A stretch of 63,861 nt of DNA, counting the filler, from Rhabdomonas costata (Eukaryota): NCBI GenBank assembly GCA_019059605.1. It is 18 parts of 18 records of this genome, joined end to end, with 100 filler letters (N's around TTAATTAATTAA, not from the genome) between each part and the next. Parts side by side here need not be neighbours in the genome. Positions count along the whole stretch, not along the records: positions 7,119 to 10,585 come from JAHMHO010000822.1; 17 more parts are not named here. One strand, written 5' to 3'. Below the pieces are notes generated by a model, which did no database searches, was not told the origin of the DNA, and worked only from the letters and a program-made list of their open reading frames with translations. A program made the translations under genes and the position numbers. Each line of letters begins with the position of its first letter. The stretch's first letter is position 1. Below, piece after piece: positions 3,460 through 42,576 of the stretch.

Positions 3460-3559
3460 NNNNNNNNNNNNNNNNNNNNNNNNNNNNNNNNNNNNNNNNN
3501 NNNTTAATTAATTAANNNNNNNNNNNNNNNNNNNNNNNNNNNNNNNNNNNNNNNNNNNN
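3460..3559. other. Artificial contig spacer (44 N + TTAATTAATTAA + 44 N). Also starts at 7019, 10586, 14141, 17701, 21258, 24814, 28369, 31924, 35476, 39027, 42577, 46127, 49676, 53224, 56773 and 60318
   Basis: The same 100-nt block, containing a six-frame stop linker, recurs about every 3.55 kb. Confidence 0.99.
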
Positions 3560-6500
3560 GGGGGGTGTGGTGAAAAGTAGCAGAAGCCTGCAGCAGACTC
3601 CGACTGCTTCTTCATTGTTGGCATGCTGCTGCAAGGCCTTGCAGACTTCATCGATGACACCATGTGAGCACAGTACTGGAAGAATCTTGACATCCTTAGA
3701 AGCAAGAACAAAGAGAAGCCTGCACACCGCTGTCGTAATTTCTGGAAGGTGAGAAAGCTGAAAGAACTGCTGAATGTCTGCATGCTCAGGTTTGAAGCCC
3801 GGAGTCTTCTCCAAATCCACCAGACGCTTCAGCAGAACATCTTTCGCGGCCGCCTCTTGCTTGCGGGTGTCTTCCTCTCGCTTGCGGGCCTCTAGCTCAG
3901 CGTAACGGCGACGATCCTCCTCTTCTTTCTTCCGCTTCATCTCCTCAACCGAGCGTGCATCCATTGCATCCAACTCCTCCGATTGTTCCTTAGAAAAGCG
4001 CTGCAGCGAAATTAACGAAACCGTGTCGTCAAAACAACCATGACGGAAAAGCTTGTTGAGCTGGTAGATCTGAAGACAATTGAGCAGTAGCCTGATTTTC
4101 ACAAACCATCGCATTCCAATAACAGGAAATCCCATCAGCGACGGACTGTCGCTGAAGCTGCCCGTTGCCAAGGCGCGCAAGGCATTGAATACCTTTTTGG
4201 AACTTATGCTCTCATCTGAGCATGTGAATACCACAGCAAACTCAGAATTTGGAGCATTCTCAAAGGCCATCTTGATCTTGTCTGTCGTAAACAATTTCCG
4301 AATCTCCTTTTTCCAGTCTGGAATAAAACGATCTCTCGCAGCTTCAAGAAGCACCCCTTTCAGCATCAACTTCGCATAACTTTCCGGGCTGAAAACACGG
4401 AGATCAAGATCCGTACCCCCAAGAGCAGCCTTCAGCTTCTCCAAAACCTCTGCTTTGAACTCTGAAGAGAAGATATCCTTTGTTTCTTTCGCCTCCAGCT
4501 CCAAACCAAGCATAAGTTTCTTCTTTTTCATGGCTTTCTTTTCATCTTTAAACTGAAGCTGAGAGAATAGAATCTTCGGTCCCGGATAGATGTCTCCCGT
4601 GTACTCCGTAATTTGATTGTCACTCCTCCGAATGAAAAAGAGAGACATCCCAACTTTTGCGGACGCCTTGCCAAGCTTTCTGGAAAGGTATGTCAGAAGC
4701 ATATCCGTCGTGATTCTTTCCCCGTCCTCAGCCATGTTTGGATGACGCAGTTTAGGAGCTCTACCGAGCAAGCCCTTCCGTAAATACAATGAACCGAGCG
4801 CAGTGGTCTTACAGGGGCTGACAAACTCCACGTATTCTCCAGCAGAGGTCTCCACGCGAAAGAACCCATCACCCCGTTGCTGTGCCGGATCCCAACCTTG
4901 GCGAGGCTCTCGCCACCAAAGCGCAGATCCTCCATGAACAGAATCGATCACAAGGATAGTCTGAACACCCAGCTGAGGAGCAGTCCCCAAAACAGCACCA
5001 CGGAGCTCGTCAAGAAACAGAACGTTCTCGGGAGAGAACTCTAAGCAAGAGTCTGGAAGGAGCAGGAATCGAACTGAAGGTGGTTCCCCCGCAGGCTCGG
5101 GAGGGGTTTCCTCAACAACTTCTGCCTGCGGCTGAGTTAGAGCTTCATCCCCCACAGCTGGAGGCTGCTCAGCCGCCTTGGCCTCGCCATCCTCCTCCTT
5201 CTTCTTCGTCTTCTTACTTTTTTTCTTGGTGTCTTTCTTGTCCTTGGGCTCCGACTCAGCTGCCTTTGCAGAATCTTCCTTGGCTGCTTTCTTGGGGGTA
5301 CCCTTCTTCTTGGCCGCTGCGGCTTCCTTCTTTTTCTGCTCTTCCTCCTCACGCCGGCGCTTCTCCTCCTCCTCTTCCTGCTGTCTGCGCCGCTCTTCCT
5401 CTTCCTCAGCTTTTCGGCGGGCCTGCTCAACGGCTTCCTTTTTCAGGCGCTCCTCTTCTTTCCATGTCTCCGCTTCCCTTTTCAACTCCGCCTTTGTGGG
5501 GCCATCATACATCACTCCCGAGAGGCTTCGACAGCTAACATAGACCAAAAGCTGACAGTCTTCTTTGCGTGCAGCAGCGACTTCGCGCAGAATATTTTCC
5601 TTGGTTGGCGATAGGTCAGGCCCAGAGGAGGGGAACATCAGAGTGACCGTGTATCCCAGCTGTGTTAAAACCACGGCAAGTTCCCTGCAGTCATCCTCTG
5701 AGTGCAAGGCCACGCGCAATCGTTCATCTTCAGATGAGGGAATCCCAATCACAATCGCCCGAAGCTGCGTTTTCGCTTGGGTTTCTTGCGGGAACTTGCG
5801 CTTCATATCTGCAACTCGACGTGCTCGCGCCCGCTGGCGCTCGCGAGCCTCATTTAGGAGCTTGTATCGCCTCCGACCCAAAAAGAATCTGATATTCTTC
5901 TGAATCACGATGCTTGCATATGTTCTGGAGGTGCTGTTGAGGCGTGAAGCCATCTCAGACAGACAAACAACTTCGTCCGTGGCAGGATCGGAAAAGGCAG
6001 TAAACAGCATCACCATCCTCGAGGAGCTCTCACCGTAAAAAACCGCTCGTTGCAAAAGGTTGCTGATTACGGACGTCGGAAAGCTCAGCTTTGAAAGCTT
6101 TTGAATAGCTCGTTTACATAGCTGAGGGTGACTGCCGACTTGGAGAAGTGCCTGTTCAAAACTAACTAAGGCACGATTAACACACGCCTTGGCCTTCTCC
6201 GCAGCTCCAAAGTTCGATTTTGGGCTGGCCCACTGGAATATCGTGCGATCGAAGGAAGAGTGGGCGTGTTTGTGGTATCCCGCCATATCAAACACGGAGA
6301 GAGTGGCATCGCCAAGCTTGACGACAATAATCTGATGTCCTCGGCAAGCCTTGAGCTGAGCAGTGCGTGTCCGAGTGTCCTGCAGCACATCGTGGATGTA
6401 AAAAGAGGTTGTTGTGCGCCAGCAGTTTTCCGGAATGAGATCAAGGCTCAACGAGTCGTCAGCTGAAGCCCTTGCGCTCTTCCAAACCACGTGGTTCAAG

Positions 6501-6765
6501 TTCTGGATCTCTTTCTGGTTGAGGGCGTCGTAAATCTTCTCTTGGTACAGCCCGGTATCGTCAGGACCCCCATATATCAACAGGTAGGCGAGTTTGATAT
6601 CGTTGTTCTCCCAGCGCTTTTCTTCTTCCCCAGAAACAGGCACTTTTTCGTCGGCAGTCTTCGTTTCGAGGCCATACGGGAGTTCCACATACAGCCAAGT
6701 AGCGCTCCACTCCGGCCCGGTTTGACAAATCCCGTTATTCCCATTTCCAGTGGCATCCATAAGCA
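3560..6765 (-). CDS. Large protein, partial: degenerate kinesin motor-like domain + IQ motif + inactive caspase-like (C14) domain with a charged insertion + helical/ARM-like C-terminus
   Basis: One ~3.2-kb open exon after a ttttcttttgtag acceptor. Kinesin-like motifs: LYQEKIYDAL, RGHQII, LSVFDMAG, VNRAL, SVISNLLQRAV…SRMVML. IQ motif: IQKNIRFFLGRRRY. Caspase-like: LRAIVIGI…DDCRELAVVLTQLGY…PTKENIL…LLVYVSCRS…LVIDSVHGG. Confidence 0.75.
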
Positions 6766-7399
6766 CCTACAAAAGAAAAACCACAAAACGCTCGACAAAA
6801 AGACGCGGTGCGACCTGGTCCCAAATCAACGATTTAGATTCAGCTCAAAATGCAACGGTTTCCACTGTTGTGTGGTTTCAGGGTTGTACTGGTCTCACCA
6901 AGTACATCCCCAAATGTGCGTGTGTTTTGCTCTTCGAAAAGGAAGCGGCACGAAACCCAAACAGGCGCACTTCTATTCTTGGGACCTCTGGAGTTTTCTC
7001 CAGGACCGCGGAACACAGNNNNNNNNNNNNNNNNNNNNNNNNNNNNNNNNNNNNNNNNNNNNTTAATTAATTAANNNNNNNNNNNNNNNNNNNNNNNNNN
7101 NNNNNNNNNNNNNNNNNNGGGGGGGTGGTATCCAAAGGAGGCGTCTCCTTTAGTGTCAGAGTGGTACACTCGCCTATGATTTGTAAGAAATTTCACGAGT
7201 CCGAGAATTGCACAAATTTTTGCAAGTGGAGCGTGGTATTAGACACGTTTTAATAGAAGTATTTGGATGATTTAGCAAAGACAGCTGTGAGCAGCATTCA
7301 GATAGTGGAAGTAAGTACCCCGGTCCCGCTGTTAGTGTTGCCATTCCAGATAGAAGCGAGAGAGTGGGTTGGGTTCTTTGGAGTTTTTCCAGACATTTC

Positions 7400-9740
7400 C
7401 CACCTCAATCACTAATGTTATTGCCGTTGTGGATTGGTGACACCCAATTTATGGCGTTACTAGACTCTGGATCATCAGACTCTTTTATAAGTCAGGAGTT
7501 GGTCCAGAAATTTCGTTTGCAGAGGTACCAGTTGCCGCAGAAGCTTACAGTGATGGTTGCTAAAGTGAAATGACTTCCAGTGAAGCACTTCGTCCGAGTT
7601 GTCGGAAAGTTGGGTTCCATGCCTATCAAAATGTTTTTTATAGTGATCAAGACGGCAATCACAGTAGTGCTGTGTAATCCCTTTAAACGAGGCTGCAACC
7701 TCAGATTCATTGGAATCGCATGAATGTCACGTTGTTGAGAGGAGGAAGAATGTACGACATCCAGGAGCTTCCAGCGGTAGATGCATTTCGAACCACATGC
7801 CCCGCTACAGTAGTGCTGGATGCAGAGCAAGGGGAATTTGCTAAGGTGAACCATCTGATTGCTCCACTGCAGGAACTTTAGATGTCGTTTCCACCGAGCC
7901 CACAATAGCAGTGGAGTGTGGAGGCGACGTCCCGTGCATTCCAGACGTCCAGAGTGTTGAAGTCTTGTTGGAAATCATTCAACTCTGTGCCTAAACATGT
8001 CCCTCGCCTTATGGTTTATGTGTGCTGTTCGTTCCAAATGCCAACGGTAAGTTGCGTCTGTGTGTTGATTACAGACCGCTTAATGCAATTACGGTTACGA
8101 TGCGTACAATATACCACAAACCGACGAGATTATTGATCACGCGTGAATGCAAAGTGGTTCCCGAAGCTGGATTTGCGTGCTGGATTCTATCGTATTAGAA
8201 TTTTTCTAGAGCATGTGTGGAGGAAGGACTTCAAGACAAAGCATGGTTAGTTCCAATTCAGATTCATGCGTTTTTGGTTGCGCAATGCCGCAGTAACGTT
8301 ACANNNNNNNNNNNNNNNNNNNNNNNNNNNNNNNNNNNNNNNNNNNNNNNNNNNNNNNNNNNNNNNNNNNNNNNNNNNNNNNNNNNNNNNNNNNNNNNNN
8401 NNNNNNNNNNNNNNNNNNNNNNNNNNNNNNNNNNNNNNNNNNNNNNNNNNNNNNNNNNNNNNNNNNNNNNNNNNNNNNNNNNNNNNNNNNGATTTTGTTC
8501 CACGCATATAAGTTGGAAGCACATGTGGAGGCAGTGGTGGTGTTGTACCGGATATTAGACCGAGAGAAGCTGTATGATAATCAAGAGAAGTGAATGTTTG
8601 CCCAACCGCGTGGATTTTTTGTGGGGAGAAATGGGATCAGACCACAACAGAGGAAGTTAATGGCAGTGTACACGTGGCCTCAGTTACGTAAACCTACAGA
8701 TGTGAAAAGTGTCCTCGGGCTATGTGGGTTTTACTAGAGAGCTGTGGAATATTACACCACAGTGGCAGTCTTACTGACGGATTTATTGAAGAAGAAGAAA
8801 AATTGTGTGTGGTGCGAATCTCAAGAGACGGAGTTTCAGAGACTGAAAGCCAGACTTTTGAAGCACAACGTGTTAGTGGTTCTAGACGTTAAGAAGCCAA
8901 TGGTGCTTCACACCAATGCTTCAGAGGTGGGTATTGGAGCGGCGCTATTGCAGCCAGTGGAAGATGGCAAGATGCATATGGTGGAGTGTCGCTCGAGAAC
9001 GTTGTCCACAGCGGAAAAGAATTACACTGCTAATGAGATAGAAATGATAACGTTTGTGGACACGTTGTAAAAATGGAGGCATTACTTTGCCGGGTTCAGA
9101 TGTCAGAGTTCACACAAATAACTCGGAGCTGTGCTATTAGCAAAAGAACTCTAGTCCGTCTCCAAGTCAATTAAGGACGTTGGAAAGACTCCAGATGTAT
9201 AAGCAAAAGATTGCTCACATTCCAGGAAGGCAGAATGTCGCTGCGGATGCCATCTGTAGGCACACACTGGACAAAGTAAGCTTGGGAGCGATGGAATTGG
9301 AGGTTTTTTGCGACACTGAGATTTGAATTACCACTCTGTGCACTACTGAAGGTAGCATCAGATGTGGAGCCAGACGATTTTTGGCCAGATTTATGGTGAA
9401 TGGTGTGAAGAGGTACTTTAACGTGACTACAGCGGAGCTTTTGGATCATACATATTGGCACCATGGCAAATTTTGTAGTCGGTGAAGATCGTGGTACCAA
9501 TCCAGAGTGAACAAGACTCAACCGCAGCAGATCAATATAAACGTCCAGAACGGCCGCCCTGATCAATCTGACTTACACGTTCAAGAACATCAAAAGAAAG
9601 GTACGAGCTTACGTGCGTACCTTTGATGTTTAACAAAGATTCAAAGCGGAGCACCATTTGACAAGATGCAACACCCAGGTTTTTGAGCTGCCAGTAATGA
9701 AATGCGAGTCTATATCGATGTATTTCGTTTCCATGCCTGC
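7400..9740 (+). mobile_element. Decayed Ty3/Gypsy LTR-retrotransposon pol (protease-RT-RNase H-integrase N-terminus)
   Basis: Protease ALLDSGSSDSFI; RT remnants (KWFPKLDLRAGFY, FRFM…LRNA); RH VLHTNASEVGIGAAL…AEKNY; integrase VRAYVRTFDV*QRFK and CESISMYFVS. Many stops and frameshifts; internal gap 8304-8490. Confidence 0.92.
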
Positions 9741-10304
9741 ATGTACGTAGACGTTTTCTGGTCAGTCTTGGAGGTAAACGATGTGTTGGCGGTCGCGTAT
9801 CGGGAAACCAAGATTGTGGTTCTGATACCGGACACAATGAGATGAATGCCAATGACATGGAGGAGTTGTTTTGGTGGAAGCGGAATACAAAGAGTTTGAT
9901 GATGAAGATCTTCCATAAGGTGAAGAGGTTGTATCTGTAGAACAGGAGCAGTACCAATGTTTTTCAGAGCCATATTTGGAGGAAGTAAGTGCGGATGGGT
10001 CAGAGGCAATATGTCAGGAAGACGCCAAAGAAGAATTGCTGGAGTAATAGTACGAAAAGAGATTGTACGCCTCAAGTAGTGGAAGTTTCCACCTAATCCA
10101 GAGCTTGGTAAGAACGCATGTTGGAGCGCTTCAGAGATTTGCAAGAAAATTAGGACAGGAGTTCCGTGCAGCTTGTTGAGCAAGGGTCACCCGAGTGGTC
10201 GCCTGACACGCTGCGAGTCCATATTGAGAATTATCCACAGAATGGGACGGATGATGAGAACTACAAAGAAGATATATATGGAGATGTAATGTTGAGCTCC
10301 ATTG

Positions 10305-10585
10305 CTGGAAGAGGAAGTGAAGTTAGAACCTACTGGTTTCATAGCAATGTGCTACAATTTGTTAGTGACTCCTTGTATCAATTTGTTTCGGCAGAGCACC
10401 ATCAGCTGTTGCGGTACTTTACAGTATAAGAGAGGGATGGTGAGGCAATGGGCTGCATTGCGTTTTCCTACAGATGGAGCCCAGATGTGTGTCTTTACGC
10501 CAAACCTCCAAAGAGCCTCATTCCACAATTTTTGTCAAAGTCCTGTCGAGAAAGATATCGGATGCTTTTGGTGACACCAAACCAT
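10305..10585 (+). pseudogene. Dam/DIRS-type DNA N6-adenine methyltransferase remnant downstream of the Gypsy pol
   Basis: Across one frameshift and one stop it reads VKLEPTGF…TPCINLF/SAEHHQLLRYFTV*ERDGEAMGCIAFSYRWSPDVCLYAKPPKSLIPQFLSK…MLLVTPN. This matches the IDLFA..N.QL.RY…DAF…W…YANPP.SLI..VL.K…LV.P.W pattern. Confidence 0.75.
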
Positions 10586-10870
10586 NNNNNNNNNNNNNNN
10601 NNNNNNNNNNNNNNNNNNNNNNNNNNNNNTTAATTAATTAANNNNNNNNNNNNNNNNNNNNNNNNNNNNNNNNNNNNNNNNNNNNGGTGGTGTGGGAAGA
10701 CCGCTGGAAGTCAAAGCTGAGATACCTCACTCCTTTTTCGATTGGTGTATCTGATGTCTCGGCTTACTCACATTTGTTTGGAATGGAAGATGTATTTTTG
10801 TAGTACAGCAACCCACTGCGCACACCATCCCATCATTGAGAGATTCACACACACACACAAACAAACACAC

Positions 10871-12556
10871 CAGTCAGCATCTCCGCCACCAGCACCCCAA
10901 AGCTCCAAACGTCACACGTTGTCTGCCATTGCCCGTGGGAAGCCTGAGTGAGGGCATGGTGGTGAGGGCAAGTCCTCCCAGAATGCGTGAAGGTGATTTT
11001 GTACACAAAATCTGGATGTGTGTCTCCTCCCCGCGTGCTCGTCGCGCGAGTACTTCGAGTCACTTCCTGAAAATGGCATGGATGTGGTCCATTCTCCCTA
11101 GTTTTTCCCAGACGGCAAACCTCGGGAGCCATGTAAAATGGCGTGGAGGCGTGGCAGGGGTCGTCCAGCTTGCCGGCGGTGCCAAAATCAGCCAGTTTGC
11201 ATACTCCACTCTTTTGTACCTGCGAGCAGGCATTTAAACAGAGGAGATAGACGAAAGGGCGTGGGCTGGTAGGAAGTGGAGGCAGACACTGAAGGTAATG
11301 CAAACCGACACACTGGCAGACAAACATCCTCGCATAACATTGCCGTGGAAGTACCGTGACATGCGGAAGCGCGCAAAAATGTCAGTCGTTTTTTTTTTTC
11401 AGTTTCGCAGGCAAAATGCTAGAACAGCGAAATCACCCCACCACCACAAGAGAAGGGACCAAAGGCAACTGATGGGGACTAAAGCTGACAGAGTGAAAAG
11501 TAGTGAAAGGTGAGCAACGTCAACATAGGAGTCACGTCAGTCTTGCAGCCTTCCCAAAAAATGCTCCAGAAAGACAGGCAAAGCTCGTAGTGTAGGATTG
11601 TGTGCGCTTCGACAAGTCTAGCAGACACCTGAAAACAACCGCTCCTCAGTTCTGTCATTTGAAATTCTGTCTTCTTCTGGACGAGGAAAAGAACACGTTG
11701 TGATTGCTTTAGTGTCTACCAGCACATTGTGCGGCTTCACATCGCGGTGGAGGACTCCACTGCGGTGGAGGTAACCGATGCCCCGGATCACGTCATTGGC
11801 GTAGCACGCAACCACGTTGGGTGACAGCGCCCCGAAGTCCTTGATTAGGCTGGCAATGGTCCTGCGTAGGGTGTGTGTCTGTGTGGGTGTGGGTGTGTGG
11901 GAGGGGGGGGATAAGGGTTTGAACGGATGGGTGGTGTGTGCAGACTTTCCCAACCCAACTTTCAGAAGCTGATGCCGAAAAAAGGGACAGTAGGCTAGGC
12001 TTTCATCTTCGCTATGTGCTTGTGATATCATTCTCATCTTTCTTATCACAAGGACAGGATGTCTGGAACGCTTTTCCGATGTGCCAAGACCACTAAAAGA
12101 CGCTTCTTCTCTCCTTTCAGTTCCCAAGGTTCTTATTGTCTTACTACCTTGAGTAAACATATCCATGACCACCGGAGCTTCTGAGGTGTTTTTGCCCCCA
12201 CAGTATATTACGCCCACACTTCTCCGCAAGAGCCGGACCCTTGATGACACTCTCTCATTCAATGGAGAGAGGGTCCCCTGCCCCTGCTCGGGTTGTAGAG
12301 GCCGTGTGATGGGTAGGACGGGCTGCAGCCTGCGTGTGTGGGGAAGGCAGGAATGATGGGTGACTGAGGAGCGCGAGCGTTCTACCCCCCGCTGAGCTCC
12401 ATGATGACCACCAAGTGCCCGGTCACGAACGCGCTGCCCTTGTAGCTGACGATGTTCTTGTGCTGCAGCTGCGAGAGCAGCCCGATCTCCTTCAGCATGG
12501 TCTCCACCTGGGGACCAGGGGTGCGCTCCACCCGCATCATCTTCACCGCGACCAGG
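10871..12556 (-). CDS. Ser/Thr protein kinase, STE11/MAP3K-like, partial
   Basis: GT-AG exons: 12386-12556 (LVAVK…KEIGLLSQLQHKNIV), 11720-11861 (YLHRSGVLHRDVKPHNVL), 11121-11219 (CKLADFG…TPFYMAPE), 10871-10943 (DVWSFG). A possible G-loop exon (GSRGAFAK) lies near 13060-13130. Confidence 0.92.
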
Positions 12557-13962
12557 CTGCGGGCATTCCGGTGTTGGAGGGGAGGGGAGGGTCAAGCCAA
12601 TGAGTATGTGTGCCCTTTTCGGCTGGATCGCTGCTGCAGAGGCTGATGTCGCACCGTCGCCCTGCTGAGTTAAGCGAGTCAACCTACTCAGTTCTCAGTG
12701 TCTGCATGCACACGTTCACTCGCGAGCAGTCGAAAGACGATGCGGCTGAGGCCTCCATTTGCCTAATCCTCGGAGGGCAAAAAACTCTATCAGACGGCAG
12801 ATAAGGTGACCGTCGTGGGAAGAAAAACAGAGAAACGAGAATCCTGCAGCACAACGAACATAAACCGCTGCAGACAAACAACCCAACGCTCGAAACTTTG
12901 AAGCATACAAATACATAACTTTTTCACCCGTTTTCAGAATTTCGAAGTATATTTCATTTTTCTTTTATATTTTCTTTATTTTTATTATTTAAACTTTGTA
13001 ATACCTGAATCAGGAGCCATTCCACTTGCCCTATAAGGACACGCGGGCAATTACAATACTTCGCGAACGCTCCCCTGCTCCCTCCGGGAACGCGGATCAC
13101 CTCAACGACCCTCTCCCAGCAACCTGCCTGAGGGCCTCCATTCCCGCCGAACGGCCCGAATGCAAAGCTCCAAGATCCTTGACTGAAACGCACTTCCACA
13201 GCCATTTGTAAGAAAGGTGCTGAATTGTTATTATTTGAAAAACACAATCAAAGCCAGTCTCTAAGATGTCTCTCAGAGAGTTTTATCAGTGTGTCAGCGA
13301 CACATGCTGATAAGCCACGGTCTCCACAGAGTTCAAAATTCTGGCATATTGTATGAAACACCCTGTGTGCTGCTCAACACCACGACCACTCAATGAACCA
13401 CGCGTTCTTGTGCATCGGTTTGCCCAGTTAAAGATACTGCGCTGTGTGCCAATGAAAAGCGTCAGGATGCGGTGACCTTACCTTTTCGCCCGAGAAAGGC
13501 GCTTTCCCTGCAATTTCTGTCCCCACCTCTCTTTTTACACGCTCTTCAGTCTGAAGATGCCATTCTGCAGACGAGAAGCTCCTTGCAAAGCATCATTGAC
13601 AACATGAACAGCATGGCCACCCCGCACCGCAGCCCTGTCAGAGGGTAGGTTCCCCACTCCCGCGAATATGAGCGTGTATAGGCGTACAGACGCATAAGTA
13701 CTGCTGAGAACCATTTTCTGTCATGCAGCGGTTGATGGGCAATGAAAAGGGATTGGGCCTTGGAGTTGGACACTTTCGGGCAGACCTGGAACCCCTCCTC
13801 TAGCGCGCACTCACACATTCCCATGCAAGGGATTCGTCCTCGTACCTTGTCTCTCGTGGCAGTTGATTCCGTGTCTGGTGTGGATAGGTAGGTCTACTCC
13901 ACCCAAGGCCAAGGAACGAAGTGTCCACACATATGTACTGCGTGGGCGCCTCTCCCTGCTCT

Positions 13963-14002: not shown

Positions 14003-14499
14003 TATTTTTTATAATTTATTTCTTTATTTTTCCTCATCATATTTCATTTCAAAGGTTGGGATCGTTCCACCGTTCCAATTGCAAACCAACCGGACAGACT
14101 TAAGCGCCCACAACCGGAAAGCAAGGGGGGGGGGGGGGGGNNNNNNNNNNNNNNNNNNNNNNNNNNNNNNNNNNNNNNNNNNNNTTAATTAATTAANNNN
14201 NNNNNNNNNNNNNNNNNNNNNNNNNNNNNNNNNNNNNNNNGGTTTTGGTGAGACCACACGTGCCTGTGCTCAGATCAACCAGAGTTGATCAGGTAGAGAA
14301 GCGCGAAGCCACATCCCACGCAGAGTGAAACCAGAGACAGCCACAAAGATGAATCAGAGTTTCAATTTAGAGGCACACGTGGAACTAGTTGAATAATGTG
14401 GTGAAGAAGTTGGTGGAGAATAGTGAAGAGCATCAGACCAGTTTCCGTAAGCCAGAAAGTGCCCGAGCGGGATCATTAATGGTGCTGAAGTCCAGTGAG

Positions 14500-15825
14500 T
14501 AATATGGAAGATCCGTAATCGGTCCACAGTAGACAAGAATTGGTGGAAATGTCTTGCGGATTAACTAATGCTGAGTTAACAGTTGTGACCCACCATTCAC
14601 TTTCAGAGGTTTCCAGATAGTTCAAAAACCACCAATTGACTGTGTTGTGTGCATAATGAGAAATATCCTTATGAGTAAGGTTGAGACATTAACCTAACTT
14701 CTAAAGTGAGCAGTGGAGTGGATTTCAGAGGAATGTGCAGACACAAAAGTTTAGCAGTATTTCTAACCTGACCAATTTTGTGGTAATTGTAGAAACTTTT
14801 GGTACCATGCCGATTAGTTTGTTCCTGGGAGTAATTCAGACCGCAACTCCAGTGGTGCTGCTTTGACGAGACTACAAAAACAGATTAAATGGAACCACAG
14901 GTGTGTCAGTGGATTCTTTCATAATTATGTTACCAACCACAGGAATGATGAAAGCTGATCCGTATGAAGTTGTTCCAGTTGTGCCTTCATGGTTCCGTGG
15001 TTGCTGAACCAACTGAAATGTCTCCAAACGTCTCGCGGCTGTGAATTACAGACATCTTAATGCCATCACAGATGCTCACTTTTATCACGACGTGGTACAT
15101 GGTTCACGAGATAATTGATTTTAAAGTGGTTTTTGAAAATAAATTTGCATGTGTGAATCCATAAAATCCGCATATATTCAGAGCATGTGAAGAGAACTCA
15201 TTCATTACAATTCAGATTCATGCCGTTTGTGTTGTGCAATGCCCCGGCAACATCCCAGAGAAACATGGACTTTGTTCTTGAGGATCTTCGAGAGACTAAA
15301 GGTGCGTACGTGGACTACATTCTTGTCCATACGGAGACGTTGTAAGCCCATGTGGAAACTTTGAATATACTGTACCAGAGGTTGAATAAATGGAAGCTTT
15401 TTGTAAATCCATAAGAGTTTATGTTTGCACAGCCAGAAGTCACTTATTGTGCATTTATTGTGTGCATAAATTGAATTAAGCCACAACCGAGGAAACTGAT
15501 GACCGTGTATACGTGTAAATGGCAGCAGTTGCGGAAACCTACAGAGATGAAGACGTTTCTCGGTACATGTTGTTTTTACCAGATATTTGTGGAATATTAC
15601 GCCACAGTCGCAGCACTCTGACGGATCTAATTAATAAGAAGAAGAAAGAGTGGGTTTGGAGTGAAGCGCAGGAGACGGAGTTTCAGAGGTTGAAAGCCAG
15701 ACTGTTAAATTCTCCAGTTTCTGTCGTTTTAGACTTTAAAAACTAATTTTGCTTCACAAAGTGATGTGTATTGGAGCCACGAGTTCACAGCAAGTGAAAA
15801 ATGACAAGATGCATTTGGTTGGTGT
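14500..15825 (+). mobile_element. Decayed Ty3/Gypsy pol fragment, same family as 7400-9740
   Basis: RT motifs VNYRHLNAIT, FRFMPFVLCNAPAT and AYVDYIL. Shares nucleotide blocks with contig 3, e.g. gagacggagtttcagag..tgaaagccagact at ~8825 and ~15672. Confidence 0.88.
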
Positions 15826-17700
15826 GCAGGGGTTCGTGCGTGCAGGTGGTGGTTTCAGGTCTCAGGGTGGGTGTGCGTTGGGTGTTTGTGTGCGTGTTCC
15901 CGAGTCGAGGGTGTCAGGAGTCGCGTCTTTGCGTTGGGGTTGGGTTGGTGGGTCGGGTCTTGGCATTCGGGGTTGGGTTGCTTGTTCACCTGATGAGGCT
16001 GGAAGGCCGAAACAGTGCCGTGTCGCTGTCGTGGACTGTCGGGTCTCCTTATCCATCTGTGCATCTACTTGTGTGGTTTCGGTGTCGTAGTGGCCTTCTT
16101 CTTTCGTCGGTCTGTTGTCGGTTGGTTCGGCCTTCGTTTCTAGCCTTCGTTGTATGCTGGGTTCCTTTGCTACGTTACTAACTACTGCGATGATGTTGAT
16201 CTCTGAATCTGGGCTGTTGGGTCTGACTTCGAGCGAGAATGTGTGTGGTGGGTTCCCGTGGTTGACTTCAGCTTTCGGCGCGATCCTGTCTCTGTTTCCG
16301 TCTCCTTTTCAGCCGAGTGAGTGCCTTGGGGTTGGGTGTGGGTGTGCTTGGGTGTGATGGTTCCGTTGTGCTACTGGTTTCTATCGCTGTGTTGGCTGCA
16401 TCTTGTGTATCGGTTTGTACTTCGTTGATGCTTTCGTGGGTCCGTGTGTGTTCTGTGCTGGTTGTTTGCTTGTGCTTGGTCTTCGGTCCTTCTGCCTAGT
16501 GGTATTCCGTAGTTTCGTTGGTTCAGGTTGTCGCCCCACAACCCTAGCAGCAGTAACACACACAGCGAGAGAACCCATAGCAACAACGGAACCAAGCACC
16601 ACAACACCCAACTCCGAACCCAGAATCCACCACCCTACGCTTGCGCGCCCACCTGAACCAACGAGACTACGGAATACCCCTAAGCAGAAGGACCGAATGC
16701 CAAAAGCAACACGCACACCCAAGAACCCACACTGACCCACGAAAGCACCAACGAAGTACGAACCGATACACAAGATGCACAAGAAGTAGCGAATGAACCC
16801 TGAAAACAACGGAAACATAATGCCGAATACCGAATGCCGAATACCAACCCCATTGACGACAGGCACCGCTACCTGAAGTCGAACCCCGAATGCCGAAACC
16901 AGAGACGCGAACCCAGAAGACAGATCCTCAAGCCCTTTGTAAATCCCACGAACCCAAGACACGAAGGCAGAAACGAACCCGGAGACACGGAGAACCCAAA
17001 CCCGAATGCAAAAGCACTTAGGCATAAACATCTAGCTCCCAGCGTTGCATCCTAGTCACCCCGAACCCAGAACCCCGAACCCAAACCCCGAAGTTTATAA
17101 GACGAATGCCGACACCGAATACTGCTCCGTAAACGCATTGAAAACGAAGACGAAGGCCATAACCACGAACTCAGAACCACTCGAAATCCAACCACTCCCA
17201 TGGATACCTGTCCCTAGACGGAATGCATGAACCACACTATACACCTCCCATCACCATTTAAGACCCCAAAGACTTAAACTCGAAACCAGGAACGCAAAAC
17301 CCCAAAGACCAGAACCCTAAATTCAACAAAAACCCGAAAACCCAAACACCAAAACCCCCCGCGGAATTCTGACCCCTGCATAAAACCCGAAGATGCATCC
17401 GAGAAACAGCCCACCAGCTACGCACCTACCATGACCTCTACTCCGGGTGGATCCTGCTACGCAGACCCACCCTACGTACATTCTACCCCTAGAGGCCAAA
17501 AAGTACCTCCATAACATACGCATGATGTCCAGATGCACCCCACATGACCACCACCAACATGCACCAAAGTGACCCTAAGATGTGAAGACGAGATATGCAT
17601 GAGTGATGGACATGAACCCACGCGGGATTCCAAAACCCAAGACCTCAAGACCCCAACCTCAGAAATCCACCCCATGACCTCAAGACAAAGACCCAAACAA
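15815..17700. repeat. G/T-rich then A/C-rich low-complexity imperfect foldback, probable amplification artefact
   Basis: Composition flips at ~16533. 16330-16530 is an imperfect reverse complement of ~16650-16830. Confidence 0.7.
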
Positions 17701-39008: not shown

Positions 39009-39149
39009 CTGTGGAAAACAACCACCNNNNNNNNNNNNNNNNNNNNNNNNNNNNNNNNNNNNNNNNNNNNTTAATTAATTAANNNNNNNNNNNNNNNNNN
39101 NNNNNNNNNNNNNNNNNNNNNNNNNNGTGTGGGTGTGTTTGGGGTTTTG

Positions 39150-40260
39150 GGGCTTTTACCATAGGTTCTTCACGCAGTTTGCGAATGTGGCAACCACCAT
39201 CACCACTTTGCTGGAGAAGAAGAAGCTGTTGTACTGTCGACCAGCCTAACAGCAAGCATTCGTAGGACTGAAGTCCTACCTTTTTCGGTATGTCGTCTTG
39301 GCCTTTCCGTAACGTAGGAAACCATTCATCCTCCACACCGACGCTTCAGACACCGGAATCGGAGCAATGTTGTGCCAATCTGATGTCTCTAATCTCTTTC
39401 ACCTGTTTGTATGCACCTCTCGGAAGTCGAATAAACATGAAGTTAATTACACCACGAACGAAAAGGATCTAGTCGATGTAGTCTATTATTGGAAGCACTA
39501 CTTCCATGGTGCCAAAGTCAAAGTCTTAACCGACAGAACCTTCAGACCATGGCGAAGTCGAGCCCCCGCCAGGTTTGTTGGCTATATCGATTGCATGAAT
39601 TCGATTTGACCATCGCACACATTCCGTGTAAGTCAAATGTTGTTGCCGAAATCTTCTCCCGCATGCGCGAGCAACAAAGGAGATGGGGGACACCTCCCCG
39701 CCTACAATGCGTCTTGTTGGACGAATGGCTGGACAATTACCGACAAGATCCCGAAATTTTTTCGACCCCAACACCAACGAGCTTCACGATGACAAGCGGA
39801 AGCACTACAAGTTTGGCCGACTTTGGGCCGATGAAAAAGTCTCGTGCCGAAGAATCTGGTGAATGATATTATCACAGCGCCTCACGATATAATTGTTGTG
39901 GGTCACTGGGGATTCATCAGGCAGTCATCAGTATCCAACGCCGGTGCGCCAACACATTGATTCATGCGACGTCTGTCCAAAGCTGATCACCACAACCCTC
40001 GAGGACTTATGGAACGAGTTTCAATTCCAACCCAGAAATGGAAGTCAATCGGCATAAACTGGATCGTCAAGCTCTCGCAGATTCAGCTGGAGGTGATGAC
40101 CTACGACGCGGTGCTGACAACCTCATCCATGCATGTAAGAAGGCGTCGGCAATTGACACAGCCGAGCATTTCCTTTGGCATGTGGTGATGTACCACGGCC
40201 TCCCCCTCTCCATCATCTCCCACCGAGTATCAAGATTCATGTGAGCCTTTGTGGAGACTT
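39150..40260 (+). mobile_element. Decayed Ty3/Gypsy RNase H-integrase fragment (apparently a different family)
   Basis: EVNYTTNEKDL…WKHYFHG…TD; LHEFDLTIAHIPCKSNVVAEIFSR; PTQKWKSIGINWI; YHGLPLSIISHR. Frameshifted. Confidence 0.88.
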
Positions 40261-42341
40261 TCTGTTCATACTTCAGTAAAGTTTTTGTTTTGGTATTTAT
40301 GCCGAAGTAGGGTGTCTTGAACTCAAGGCGGTCTTTCACCCGGCGGGGCCCTTACTACCTAGACTCACGAACATGATGGGCCCTGACAAGGAAGACCATC
40401 ATGGAAGTAGGAGGGGCATGCCACGCACCGACTTATTTTCCGGGGAGTGGCATGAACCATCATGCTTAGGGAGCAACATACGACTGGCTATTCCTCTAAA
40501 ACGGCCCCCAAGGCCGCCCATCATACATTCATCCCACCAAGGGGAATCTGGATGGTCTTACCGGGCACCGTCGGCATTTTTACCACTTTTCATCGTTAAT
40601 TTTTATGGGACACTTTTATGATTTTTACCCCCATAAAGGATTCTCATCCCCTATCCATACCAAGGAAGCACTGGTTAGAGACAAAAAGATGCCAAAAAAG
40701 CACGAATTTTTGGGTATTTTCTCTTCCCGCCTATTTTTTTTTGAATGGATTAAATATGGGGGTAATTTCCAATAATTACATGGTTTGCATGGGTATTTTA
40801 TTTTATTATCGTTTTTTGCAGTTGTTTAGTGGTTAACGTAAAAGGGTGGATGGGGTTTAAAAGTAACGGTTTTGAACATCATGGACTACTAAAACATGGG
40901 GCCGCCCATGTGGGGGCGCTGCCGTAAACCACAACGAGTCCGCACGGGAAACAAAATCGGATAGCCGGCGGTGGGGGAAGAGGCGGAACGGTATATGGAG
41001 CACGCGACCCCGCAAAGCACGATAAAACCTTGACGGCAACAGCAATCCGAGCAAAACCGAAAGGCCCAAAACAAACGGCCGGTTCCTAAAAAACGTGAAG
41101 CGGGCAAATAAAGCCCCCATCCCCCGACTAAAGCGCCAAAGGGACAACACCGGACAAGTGGAACGCCAAAGAGGGACACAAACAGAGGATTTTTGGATGA
41201 AAAATCCTTGTGGAGAGCAACCGTATTGTCCGGTGTCGGCCGGGGCCGGGGAACGCGCAGCTGGTTTTGTTTTTCTTCAACTCTCATTCCGTCTTTCCCT
41301 CATGCCCTGAGGTTCTTTTCATAACATTCTCCTCCGGGGTGTCTCCTTTGCCTCTGAGCGCGCCTGCATCTCGTCCGTTTGTTTCGCCCCCTTAATCCTT
41401 ACCACTTAGCTCTGGATGGTCCTAGGGCACCCTCTCGTGGTGCCTGTTTTTCTTGAAGGTAAGCTGTTCAACCGTTGGGTGCGGAGTTAGGCTTTTTTGA
41501 ACTAATTCGTGCTTTCGTATTCTTGCGCCCGGCGCATGTTCTCGAATTTGTCTCGTTCGTGTTTGTTGCTCCGTGTGCCGTCCCCCCCCCCCCGCTCTTG
41601 GATGTTTGCCGGCCCTTCTTGCATTGCTGCCTTTAATTCCGCTTGCTAGAAATTTTGATGCGTTTTGCTTCCCTGCCTGAAATAAACCTGTGGATGCGAT
41701 GCATTTAAGGAGGAGGGGTATGGTTCGAGAAATTTAAATCGTTTAAAGACCTTAAAACGGTGAGGTATAAAAAGATGCACGTAGGCGGCCACCCGAAAAC
41801 CCTCCTCGTGTGTCACTGTTTTGGTACTTATGGCCACAAAAACTCCACCCATCCCCCCCCACTATCCCGCCTCAGCCGCACGCTAAGGACTGGCTTCCGT
41901 GGCACTGGAATTCGCCACGTTGTTGAGACAGTTTAGCCCAACTCCAAAAATGCACCGGAGCAATAATACCGGCATGGTTGTTCACCTCCCTCGACATTAT
42001 GCACTTACAGCAGTACAAGGTGAAAAAACATTGCCCCAGGCATTCTTTCCATTCCTCCACGAATAAAGCTGATATGTAATGCCGAACCTTGCGAAGTCTA
42101 AGAAAATCCACACCGCTCCCATACGGAGGCCACAGTTATTGGGAATTTCTCTTCTTCACGTTCCCCTCTCACCCAGGGATTACCATCAGGGTCCTATTTT
42201 GGTATTAGCTGACTACTGACAGCAGACAATCTGACGCATGGAAGCTATTCCCGAAGCCACCACATGAAACTGTGACATAGTGTCTCCAAGTTTCGCGACA
42301 GTACCTCCGCACTGGACGCAGAATGTTCGGAGGAGCCGCGC

Positions 42342-42576
42342 CTACTCCGCGCTGTGCCTCTGCTTCCTCTTGATCACCTTCCGGAGCTTCTTGGCGCGAA
42401 CCTTCCGCTCTGCGGCGGTGATCTGCGCAAGCAAGGGTCGCTTCCACGGCCCTGCGCCGGGCTGCACCGTCTCCCCTGCCGCCGCAGCTTGGGCGTCAGC
42501 CCTGTCCTTCTCGTGCTGCACACGGCGCTTCGTCGCGGCCTTCATCTCCAGCGCCCGCCGGCGCATCCAAACCACC
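42342..42576 (-). CDS. Basic C-terminal exon of an unknown protein
   Basis: GC-rich frame …RRVQHEKDRADAQ…RAKKLRKVIKRKQRHSAE*, open from the contig end. Confidence 0.5.

Follow-up and report, generated by a model that had tools for sequence, protein, structure and literature searches.

Ty3/Gypsy-type retrotransposons that carry a DIRS-type adenine-methyltransferase-like domain have been described as 'DAM-LTRs', i.e., Gypsy elements with a DAM-like domain, in five lineages (Fernandez-Moreno et al., bioRxiv May 2026, 10.64898/2026.05.21.726589). In the ichthyosporean lineage, the element keeps the conventional Gypsy order and has no chromodomain. The preprint text further discusses chromoviruses and DNMT-carrying Gypsy elements, in which, by the same principle, a chromatin- or DNA-modification module has been added to Gypsy Pol, a chromodomain or a C5-MTase there in place of the adenine-MTase-like module considered here. 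In the assay given in that text, the DAM-LTR domain brought about no 6mA gain in Dam-deficient E. coli, and DAM-LTR copies are reported to carry more 6mA than other LTR elements do. A homologous methyltransferase (MT) domain is found in DIRS1-like elements, where it directly follows RNase H; Iyer et al. 2016 (PMC4738411) assigned the domain of DIRS1 to the PCIF1 clade and judged the DIRS1 versions likely inactive.

Retrotransposons with an adenine-methyltransferase-like module of their own are a recently recognised route to engage host epigenetic marks, and the locus described here is a further case of a Gypsy element with an MT-like tail. It is also an independent sighting, in which the architecture was detectable from bare sequence. 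A sequence-only reading of the locus had taken this MTase family to be foreign to integrase-encoding Gypsy elements, a view outdated by the DAM-LTRs. Unlike the published DAM-LTRs, the present copy is a dead, deleted fragment.

The window, i.e., the whole stretch of DNA analysed (63,861 nucleotides), consists of 18 small scaffolds with N44-TTAATTAATTAA-N44 spacers between them, as mapped from the N-runs and spacers. The carrier scaffold (Table 1) is bounded by such artificial spacers at both ends, so that the adjoining window sequence is not its real flanking DNA, and its 3' end falls within the MT remnant. Over its 3.5 kb between artificial ends, the scaffold shows neither LTRs nor gag, and no primer-binding site or target-site duplication; a repeat search of it returned short chance-level repeats only, none of them LTR-like. 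The GC content of 0.452 is the lowest among the 18 scaffolds and the CpG observed/expected ratio of 0.75 lies inside the range of the others; neither is distinctive. We conclude that the scaffold very probably represents a single dead Ty3/Gypsy LTR retrotransposon copy, from a DAM-LTR lineage in which the MT domain is C-terminal in Pol.

Table 1. Features of the carrier scaffold and the alignments or matches that define them (positions count along the window)
Feature	Position	Strand	Basis
Carrier scaffold of the element	7119-10585, 3,467 bp	.	Artificial spacers on both sides; N-run and spacer map
Retropepsin (PR) remnant	7403-7782	+	Pfam Asp_protease_2, RVP_2; P0060 residues 203-292, 299-329 align
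RT N-terminal half	8004-8298	+	P0060 and L003 pol alignments
Assembly gap	8304-8490	.	187 N; RT YxDD region falls here (P0060 residues ~630-651)
RT thumb + RNase H	8492-9263	+	Pfam RT_RNaseH_2; P0060 alignment
RNase H-to-zinc-finger stretch (integrase N-terminal extension)	9264-9473	+	P0060 856-979 vs 9093-9473, 37% over 132 aa
Integrase H2C2 zinc finger remnant	9544-9648	+	Pfam Integrase_H2C2 E 0.025; P0058 alignment
Integrase catalytic core start	9700-9880	+	Three frames; P0058 173-186, 188-213 (54%), 215-230
Possible further integrase core, weak	9881-10027	+	P0058 215-270 at 23%; P0059 124-130; P0060 1137-1144; each insignificant alone
Stretch without assignment, site of inferred internal deletion	10028-10177	+	P0058 residues ~271-701 without match; no Pfam match on either strand
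End of linker before MT	10178-10307	+	P0009 27-147 vs 10178-10510; P0007 25-126 vs 10271-10543; P0059 629-746 vs 10259-10579
MT N-terminal part (EEEVKLEP...CINLF)	10308-10388	+	Frame differs from rest of MT; P0058 726-751, 61.5% of 26 aa
MT domain to ...LLVTPNH	10388-10585	+	Cut by scaffold end; P0058 743-817, 53% of 75 aa, E 2e-21

All parts of the element share the + strand, in the order PR, RT, RNase H, integrase zinc finger, start of the integrase core, a short stretch without assignment, end of the linker, and MT. The PR remnant retains the active-site stretch LLDSGSS (7457-7477) and is matched on 7271-7573 by two Pfam families, Asp_protease_2 (E 3.5e-5) and RVP_2 (E 3.8e-5); a single in-frame stop interrupts it, and its frame shifts once. 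The N-terminal half of RT, spread over two frames with one stop, aligns with residues 531-561 of P0060 at 8004-8096 (84% of 31 aa) and with residues 580-629 at 8149-8298 (52% of 50 aa); residues 900-999 of the L003 pol product align there too. Beyond the assembly gap, the RT thumb and RNase H are matched by RT_RNaseH_2 at E 1.3e-21 (4.7e-25 in frames with stops read through), and residues 652-860 of P0060 align with 8492-9106 (46% of 209 aa), an interval that holds three in-frame stops. The ADALSR-like end of RNase H is present as VAADAICRH (9237-9263). From PR to the integrase, the order is collinear with P0060 and with the L003 pol ORF over 7403-9747, and the PR-RT-RH block proposed from sequence inspection is confirmed by Pfam and tblastn far beyond chance, together with the start of an integrase. 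Pfam searches of the ORF pieces and of whole frames (stops as X) returned PR, RNase H and a sub-threshold H2C2 only, with no Dam, rve or RVT_1 in the scaffold, and no match on its minus strand.

Of the integrase, only the zinc finger and the beginning of the core are left (P0058 121-213). Residues 121-191 of P0058 align with 9544-9762 (50.7%, E 7.5e-17), and the Integrase_H2C2 match reaches 15.1 bits, under its cut-off; within the finger, YVRTFDV*QRFK (9610-9645) has Phe and a stop at the two Cys positions. At the start of the core, SISMYF (9709-9726) has Tyr at the position of the first catalytic Asp, followed by the stretches VAYRETK (9792-9812) and ELFWW (9863-9877). The core is clear as far as 9830 (54% of 26 aa) and weak to about 10027, a range in which an F.S..W stretch (9959-9982) matches the same motif of three relatives in weak alignments. 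Nothing in the scaffold corresponds to the remainder of the core, to the SH3-like domain or to most of the linker of those relatives. The gap of ~570 nt initially left without assignment does exist; it is, however, about 150-240 nt long, with core sequence reaching 9830, or weakly 10027, on one side and the linker starting at 10178 on the other.

The MT remnant comprises the first ~93 residues of the domain and is interrupted by a frame change at 10388 and a TAA stop at 10427-10429. The stretch KPPK (10502-10513) occupies the place of NPPW in the relatives and departs from the (D/N)PP(Y/F/W) catalytic motif. A query of 10379-10585, with the TAA read as X, matched 54 database proteins at E<=1e-3, five of them at E<=1e-10, in line with the methyltransferase remnant claimed on this strand. 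The top match among the 54, P0004, was rejected as spurious; it is a bacterial protein of cadherin/Ig repeats, and its match is broken up into 12 short stretches. Pfam Dam gave no match to the remnant even at E<=10 in stop-read-through frames, so that the link to Dam runs via the relatives only.

Together, at least nine in-frame stops, many frame changes, the loss of most of the integrase, the altered motif positions and the cutting of both ends by the assembly show that this copy is non-functional, as the replacement of NPPW and the stop and frame change in the MT had already suggested. As a dead relic, the scaffold is itself uninformative on MT activity.

Intact relatives supply what the remnant lacks. 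P0060 (1763 aa) has the order PR-RVT-RH-H2C2-rve-SH3-MT in a single ORF, including the linker before the MT, and aligns with the scaffold in eight collinear pieces between 7403 and 10582. In L003, a gag precedes a 2295-aa pol ORF that is likewise collinear with the scaffold, and here again the MT lies within pol behind the integrase. The defining trait of a DAM-LTR, a DAM-like domain in one element with a Gypsy-type RT and integrase, is present in the scaffold too, where the MT follows the integrase on its 3' side in the same orientation and in collinear order. Every scaffold segment is out of frame with the next one, and the one-ORF architecture is therefore read from the relatives. Two further proteins, P0058 and P0059, have rve, SH3 and MT, with H2C2 in addition in P0058. 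These comparisons suggest that Pol of the lineage consists, after RNase H, of an integrase (zinc finger, DDE core and SH3-like domain), a long acidic proline-rich linker and, at its end, an adenine-N6-methyltransferase-like domain of ~150 residues, a type initially recognised in DIRS elements. Like the ichthyosporean DAM-LTRs, P0058-P0060 and the L003 pol ORF have no chromodomain by Pfam.

The nearest relatives share only ~50-60% protein identity with the scaffold. SH3_Tf2-1, a Gypsy-integrase domain, lies upstream of the MT in 4 of 18 scanned MT matches, and a search for longer proteins with P0005 as query yielded ten matches, three of them integrase-linked (P0058, P0059 and P0060). The corresponding search with the RNase H query found a single protein, the MT-lacking Gypsy Pol P0003 (36% by tblastn), and missed P0060, as the sensitivity of the word index is limited. 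Among 80 metagenome loci encoding related Gypsy Pol, three (L001-L003) have an MT match, all three with YANPPW, and L002 and L003 are the two closest of the 80 by identity. Across the relatives, the N, P and P of the NPP[W] motif are conserved at 90% or more.

Two trees place the two halves of the scaffold separately. In the MT tree, which is unrooted and has 55 rows (9 of 63 matches were left out for short coverage), the remnant falls in a nine-row clade (97/92) with P0058 and P0059. The enclosing 41-row clade (95/94) includes all seven integrase-linked rows and none of the nine DIRS-like rows, a label that denotes RT/RNase H directly upstream of the MT and no integrase, rather than a recombinase seen; in the comparison of MTase phylogeny with DIRS, the remnant thus groups with the integrase-linked domains. 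The RT/RH tree, which has 40 rows and retains 35 of the 80 loci, puts the scaffold in a six-row clade (100/98) with all three MT-bearing rows and none of the nine MT-lacking rows. By these sequence comparisons, both halves are shown to belong to the MT-bearing Gypsy lineage. The proposal that a Gypsy lineage captured a 6mA methylase holds in so far as relatives, collinearity and both trees indicate that such a lineage carries the MT; a capture from DIRS is consistent with the unrooted MT tree, which does not itself show it. A phage Dam outgroup is absent from the tree because P0005, compared by tblastn with 50,697 phage records, matched none of them at E<=0.01.

The scaffold is short and repeat-derived, it has an internal gap and comes from a fragmented assembly, and homology breaks at about 10027-10178, all of which would suit a chimera of a truncated ordinary Gypsy element beside a DIRS-type fragment, formed by nested insertion or mis-assembly, so that the MT was never part of the Gypsy element. 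Nested or chimeric cases in one host are warned of in the preprint 10.64898/2026.05.21.726589, and 10200-10260 can be forced by eye onto an RNase H end motif. This last candidate was ruled out, as no DIRS-like protein aligns there and 10178-10307 instead shows homology to the linker found in the closest relatives, among them the integrase-linked P0058 and P0059. The DIRS-like proteins P0039, P0048 and P0061-P0067, which match the scaffold remnant or its relatives, do so in the MT and/or the RNase H end (9069-9272) only, and none matches within 9762-10300. Moreover, the distance from the end of RNase H (9263) to the MT (10308) is about 1.05 kb with the integrase in between, and the element has a PR and the start of an apparently DDE-type integrase, both foreign to DIRS elements, in contrast to the direct RNase H-MT succession of DIRS1-like elements. 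The earlier remark that no recombinase is visible stands, with none on either strand by Pfam and no tyrosine recombinase family in the six stop-read-through frames of the scaffold. P0058 is the best match for the integrase start (50.7%) and for the MT (53-61%) alike, the RT/RH half is placed in the MT-bearing Gypsy clade independently of the MT, and the MT clusters with integrase-linked domains outside the DIRS-like rows. Since the two trees agree on the same lineage, a chimera or nested DIRS fragment is highly improbable.

Less remote, though still unlikely, is an account in which the element is a real DAM-LTR and the missing 3' part of the integrase, SH3-like domain and linker reflect a collapse or mis-join of diverged copies by the assembler, the genomic copies being longer. 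The assembly is fragmented and scaffolded across N gaps, and the 64-kb window contains two or more further fragments, diverged but of this same RT clade, which suggests a repeat family difficult for an assembler. Against this, the parts flanking the break are uniformly decayed and collinear, as expected for one old copy, and internal deletions are common among old retrotransposon copies. No second MT copy was found on the remaining scaffolds of the window.

The substrate of the MT domain in intact members of the family is a separate question from the architecture, for which a single dead Gypsy copy with a C-terminal MT remains the preferred reading. At the level of sequence profiles, Dam (PF05869, small phage-type N6-adenine methyltransferases) is matched by 16 of 44 relatives at E<=0.01 and PCIF1_WW by one of 44, and P0048 (29.6 bits) and P0065 (33.9 bits) exceed the curated Dam cut-off of 28.1 bits; the DNA-methylating activity of the family is putative. 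At the level of the fold, the AlphaFold model of P0005, a relative and not the scaffold remnant itself, has a class-I methyltransferase fold (pLDDT 90.9), and its matches to adenine-N6 methyltransferases span Z 8-12. The best Foldseek match is 6iry, a cap-specific adenosine methyltransferase (E 8.8e-5, TMq 0.59), and VIA-align likewise ranks a structure of this enzyme first, 6irx_A (Z 11.8, 135 aa aligned at an rmsd of 2.6 A), followed by rRNA adenine methyltransferases (Z 9-10), with T4 Dam (8.6), M.TaqI (8.3) and E. coli Dam (8.3) below. PCIF1/CAPAM, of a clade marked by an NPPF-type motif and an N-terminal WW domain, is the best structural match of the model, with the differences that the transposable-element domain has no WW or helical domain and sits in a retrotransposon Pol. 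A profile of the 44 MT domains, searched against the sequences of solved structures, found 9his_J alone (a DUF4827 protein, apparently unrelated, E 0.0018) and no Dam-named entry; the solved structures may therefore include no member of Dam PF05869, a bias that may have affected the fold ranking.

The fold ranking, together with weak PCIF1_WW matches in P0042, P0062, P0066 and P0067, the placement of the DIRS1 domain by Iyer et al. and the negative E. coli assay in the preprint text, would favour a family MT that is no DNA Dam, and is instead either an adenosine-N6 methyltransferase of the PCIF1/CAPAM clade whose substrates are RNA or RNA:DNA hybrids, or a module that binds RNA or Pol II and has no catalytic activity. 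We regard this as improbable, given that the profiles, including two matches beyond the cut-off, point to Dam, that 6mA is reported to be raised on DAM-LTR copies, and that the ranking may carry the bias just noted; Z gaps of 2-3 inside one superfamily leave the substrate unsettled. A more specific form of the idea, in which the module is a PCIF1/CAPAM-type adenosine-N6 methyltransferase riding on the integrase, with the capped genomic RNA of the element itself or its RNA:DNA replication intermediate as substrate, is likewise doubtful. Action on RNA or an RNA:DNA intermediate would explain the negative E. coli DNA-methylation assay, and such elements would write an RNA mark on themselves. The useful residue is a structural hint, namely that the modelled MT appears nearest to an RNA cap adenosine methyltransferase, which may bear on substrate choice.

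Intact family members would produce the MT domain at the C-terminus of Pol, and it would then be carried with the integrase into the particle and the pre-integration complex. There, according to the model in 10.64898/2026.05.21.726589, it may methylate adenines of the reverse-transcription product or of new insertions, and permissive, 6mA-marked chromatin would thereby be favoured. The 6mA self-marking suggested in the sequence-only reading is likewise hypothetical, and the E. coli assay of the preprint was negative. With the carrier scaffold included, the window holds three fragments of the same RT clade in 64 kb, which could mean that DAM-LTRs are fairly numerous in a host, or a lineage, that is not among the five already described.

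The element under study fills one entire scaffold (7119–10585, plus strand; 3,467 bp), the end of which at 10585 falls within the remnant of its adenine-methyltransferase-like, or Dam-like, domain (MT). As the window is made up of 18 scaffolds of ~3.45 kb each, in descending length and linked by N44-TTAATTAATTAA-N44 spacers, the genuine context of the finding is restricted to 7119–10585. The parts named in the sequence-only reading, comprising the protease (PR), reverse transcriptase (RT), RNase H (RH), the start of an integrase and the MT remnant, are all real, as judged by Pfam, by alignment to the database proteins P0060 and P0058, and by 54 relatives of MT. The RT pieces are too broken up for a Pfam match and are recovered instead by the P0060 alignment, with the position of the YxDD box falling inside the internal N gap. 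The integrase zinc finger lies under the Pfam cut-off (E 0.025), and the integrase core is traceable weakly as far as ~10027 under sensitive alignment settings. Searched with its stop read as X against a library of 1.84 billion proteins, the MT remnant brings up these 54 at E ≤ 1e-3, and the motif string in the relatives reads ...IDLFAS..HHQLPRY...LYANPPW.LIP...LLVTPNW. One of the 54, P0004, is a spurious repeat protein.

Features of scaffold 7119–10585, and spacers between scaffolds
Feature	Position	Evidence or remark
PR (retropepsin)	7271–7573	Pfam Asp_protease_2 E 3.5e-5, RVP_2 E 3.8e-5
RT, first piece	8004–8096	P0060 residues 531–561, 84%
RT, second piece	8149–8298	P0060 residues 580–629, 52%
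Internal N gap	8304–8490	187 N
RNase H	8738–9070	Pfam RT_RNaseH_2 E 1.3e-21; 4.7e-25 with read-through frame
RNase H end, VAADAICRH	9237–9263	
Integrase zinc finger region	9544–9762	P0058 residues 121–191, 50.7%, E 7.5e-17
Integrase core, continued	9753–9830	54% of 26 aa, sensitive alignment settings
Integrase core, ELFWW	9863–9877	sensitive alignment settings
Spacers	3460–3559, 7019–7118, 10586–10685 and so on	seemingly adjacent scaffolds are unrelated

The relatives found keep the conventional Gypsy order, with MT in last place, and their predicted Pol proteins show MT fused behind the integrase. Four of the 18 MT relatives scanned for domains have SH3_Tf2-1, the C-terminal domain of Gypsy integrases, upstream of MT. 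With the intact relative P0005 as query, a search aimed at longer proteins gave ten matches, among them P0058 (H2C2-rve-SH3-linker-MT), P0059 (rve-SH3-linker-MT) and P0060, a 1763-aa polyprotein (PR-RVT-RH-H2C2-rve-SH3-linker-MT); the remaining seven carry RVT_1 without integrase and are DIRS-like. Three of 80 metagenome loci with a related Gypsy Pol have an MT match (L001–L003), each with the YANPPW motif; two of these, L002 and L003, show the highest identity of the whole set. L003 encodes gag and then one 2295-aa ORF (PR-RVT-RH-H2C2-rve-SH3-MT). No chromodomain was found in these MT-bearing relatives (P0058–P0060 and the L003 pol ORF). The scaffold aligns with P0060 in eight ordered pieces from PR through MT, the L003 pol ORF likewise aligns in order from PR through MT, and P0058 is the top match to the integrase start and to MT alike.

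We note some peculiarities of the metagenome loci. The opening and closing 99 nt of L003:1-14654 are identical, suggesting either a circular contig or one collapsed at a repeat; a further ORF of ~1240 aa, with no Pfam match, runs across its junction (13558 to the end, on to 2722), and 75-nt tandem repeats lie within pol (10448–10932). In L002, closely related to L003, one in-frame stop (L002:11290-11292) divides the integrase part of pol from the linker-MT part, in which YANPPW is intact.

MT could alternatively stem from a chimeric scaffold, or from a DIRS fragment nested beside a Gypsy element. We regard either as very improbable, because the architecture of P0058, P0059, P0060 and L003, the collinearity with P0060 and the L003 pol ORF, two phylogenies and the lack of a recombinase all argue against it. 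In the MT tree (55 rows; 9 of 63 matches omitted for short coverage), the remnant falls in a nine-row clade (support 97/92) with P0058 and P0059, itself part of a 41-row clade (95/94) to which each of the seven integrase-linked rows belongs and outside which the nine DIRS-like rows all lie; the comparison with DIRS elements suggested in the sequence-only reading thus sets the remnant apart from them. In the RT/RH tree (40 rows; 35 of 80 loci retained for coverage), the scaffold lies in a six-row clade (100/98) that takes in every one of the three MT-bearing rows, the nine rows in which at least 5 kb of downstream sequence holds no MT all falling outside it, and P0060 is its nearest named relative (98/94). 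A family search of the scaffold gave no tyrosine recombinase or any further family on either strand, in keeping with the earlier reading.

The copy itself is without function. Nine in-frame stops are spread across the eight pieces of the P0060-guided path, and the frame changes between every consecutive pair of pieces. The position of the first catalytic Asp of the integrase is Y (SISMYF, 9709–9726), and of the two zinc-finger Cys positions one is F and the other a stop (9610–9645). The damage from which the copy had been called dead is present in the MT remnant, namely a frame change at 10388, TAA at 10427–10429 and KPPK at 10502–10513; the domain then ends with the scaffold after ~93 of ~150 residues. 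P0058 residues ~271–701, which cover what remains of the catalytic core, then the SH3-like domain and the greater part of the acidic linker, are without counterpart, their place being taken by 10028–10267 alone, of which the part from 10178 on is the linker end. We read the missing 3' part of the integrase, SH3-like domain and most of the linker as an internal deletion, which would measure at least a few hundred bases, or about 1.3 kb if the linker matched that of P0058 in length; assembly collapse, not a real deletion, may also lie behind the missing segment.

Among 44 MT relatives, 16 hit the Pfam Dam profile (PF05869) at E ≤ 0.01, with P0048 and P0065 passing its cut-off, and conservation is at least 90% at the catalytic-motif residues N, P and P. 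The AlphaFold model of P0005 (pLDDT 90.9) has a class-I methyltransferase fold, for which the top match is PCIF1/CAPAM, a cap-specific mRNA adenosine-N6 methyltransferase, by both Foldseek (6iry, E 8.8e-5) and VIA-align (6irx_A, Z 11.8, rmsd 2.6 Å over 135 aa), followed in VIA-align by rRNA adenine methyltransferases (Z 9–10) and, lower, by T4 Dam, M.TaqI and E. coli Dam (Z 8.3–8.6). As modelled, the 'Dam-like' domain of P0005 thus appears nearer in fold to an RNA cap enzyme than to the DNA Dam enzymes. This predicted closeness agrees with the classification of Iyer, Zhang and Aravind (2016, PMC4738411), who assign the DIRS1 domain to the PCIF1 clade and consider it probably inactive, and sits uneasily with the derivation from prokaryotic DAM given in a 2026 preprint (10.64898/2026.05.21.726589).

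The same preprint describes the closest known kind of element, the DAM-LTRs (Gypsy-type LTR elements with a DAM-like domain), which it divides into five lineages. Its authors state that the domain had not been reported before in LTR elements other than DIRS, and a full-text literature search, with the other papers judged by title and the opening of the abstract, found no further description in Gypsy-type LTR elements. The scaffold thus represents, in a dead copy, an accurate and independent recognition of a type of element described only recently, and adds a member to it.

In intact members, MT would be made as the last part of Pol, with a long disordered linker tethering it to the integrase; travelling with the pre-integration complex, it would thus reach the cDNA and the target site, and we infer that it may methylate adenine there. 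In the model put forward in the preprint, the domain places 6mA on reverse-transcription intermediates and host AMT1 maintains it; DAM-LTR copies in two ichthyosporeans are reported there to have more 6mA and more expression, and an E. coli assay of the domain to be negative. That RNA or a hybrid, in place of DNA, serves as the substrate of MT is in our view a less likely but live alternative, with perhaps one chance in several. Adenine methylation of DNA is the reading we prefer.

Two further decayed Gypsy fragments lie in the window. The one at 14241–17700 (RT/RH at ~15124–15819; 71.5% DNA identity over 383 nt to 8610–8982) is the sister of the present scaffold in the RT tree (100/99), and past its RNase H it gives way to low-complexity DNA for ~1.9 kb, in which long ORFs run in both orientations and no MT is present. 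The other, at 39127–42576, has RNase H, a zinc finger and a partial integrase core at ~39139–40274, and falls in the RT clade of MT-bearing elements, with no MT match within 2.3 kb downstream. Unrelated to the finding, an open frame of more than 1,000 codons with a Glu/Lys-rich stretch spans the whole neighbouring scaffold (3560–7018, minus strand), and protein-kinase-like pieces (such as HRDVKPHNVL and a DFG stretch) are distributed over several frames, as if intron-split, on the next scaffold (10845–12694, minus strand).
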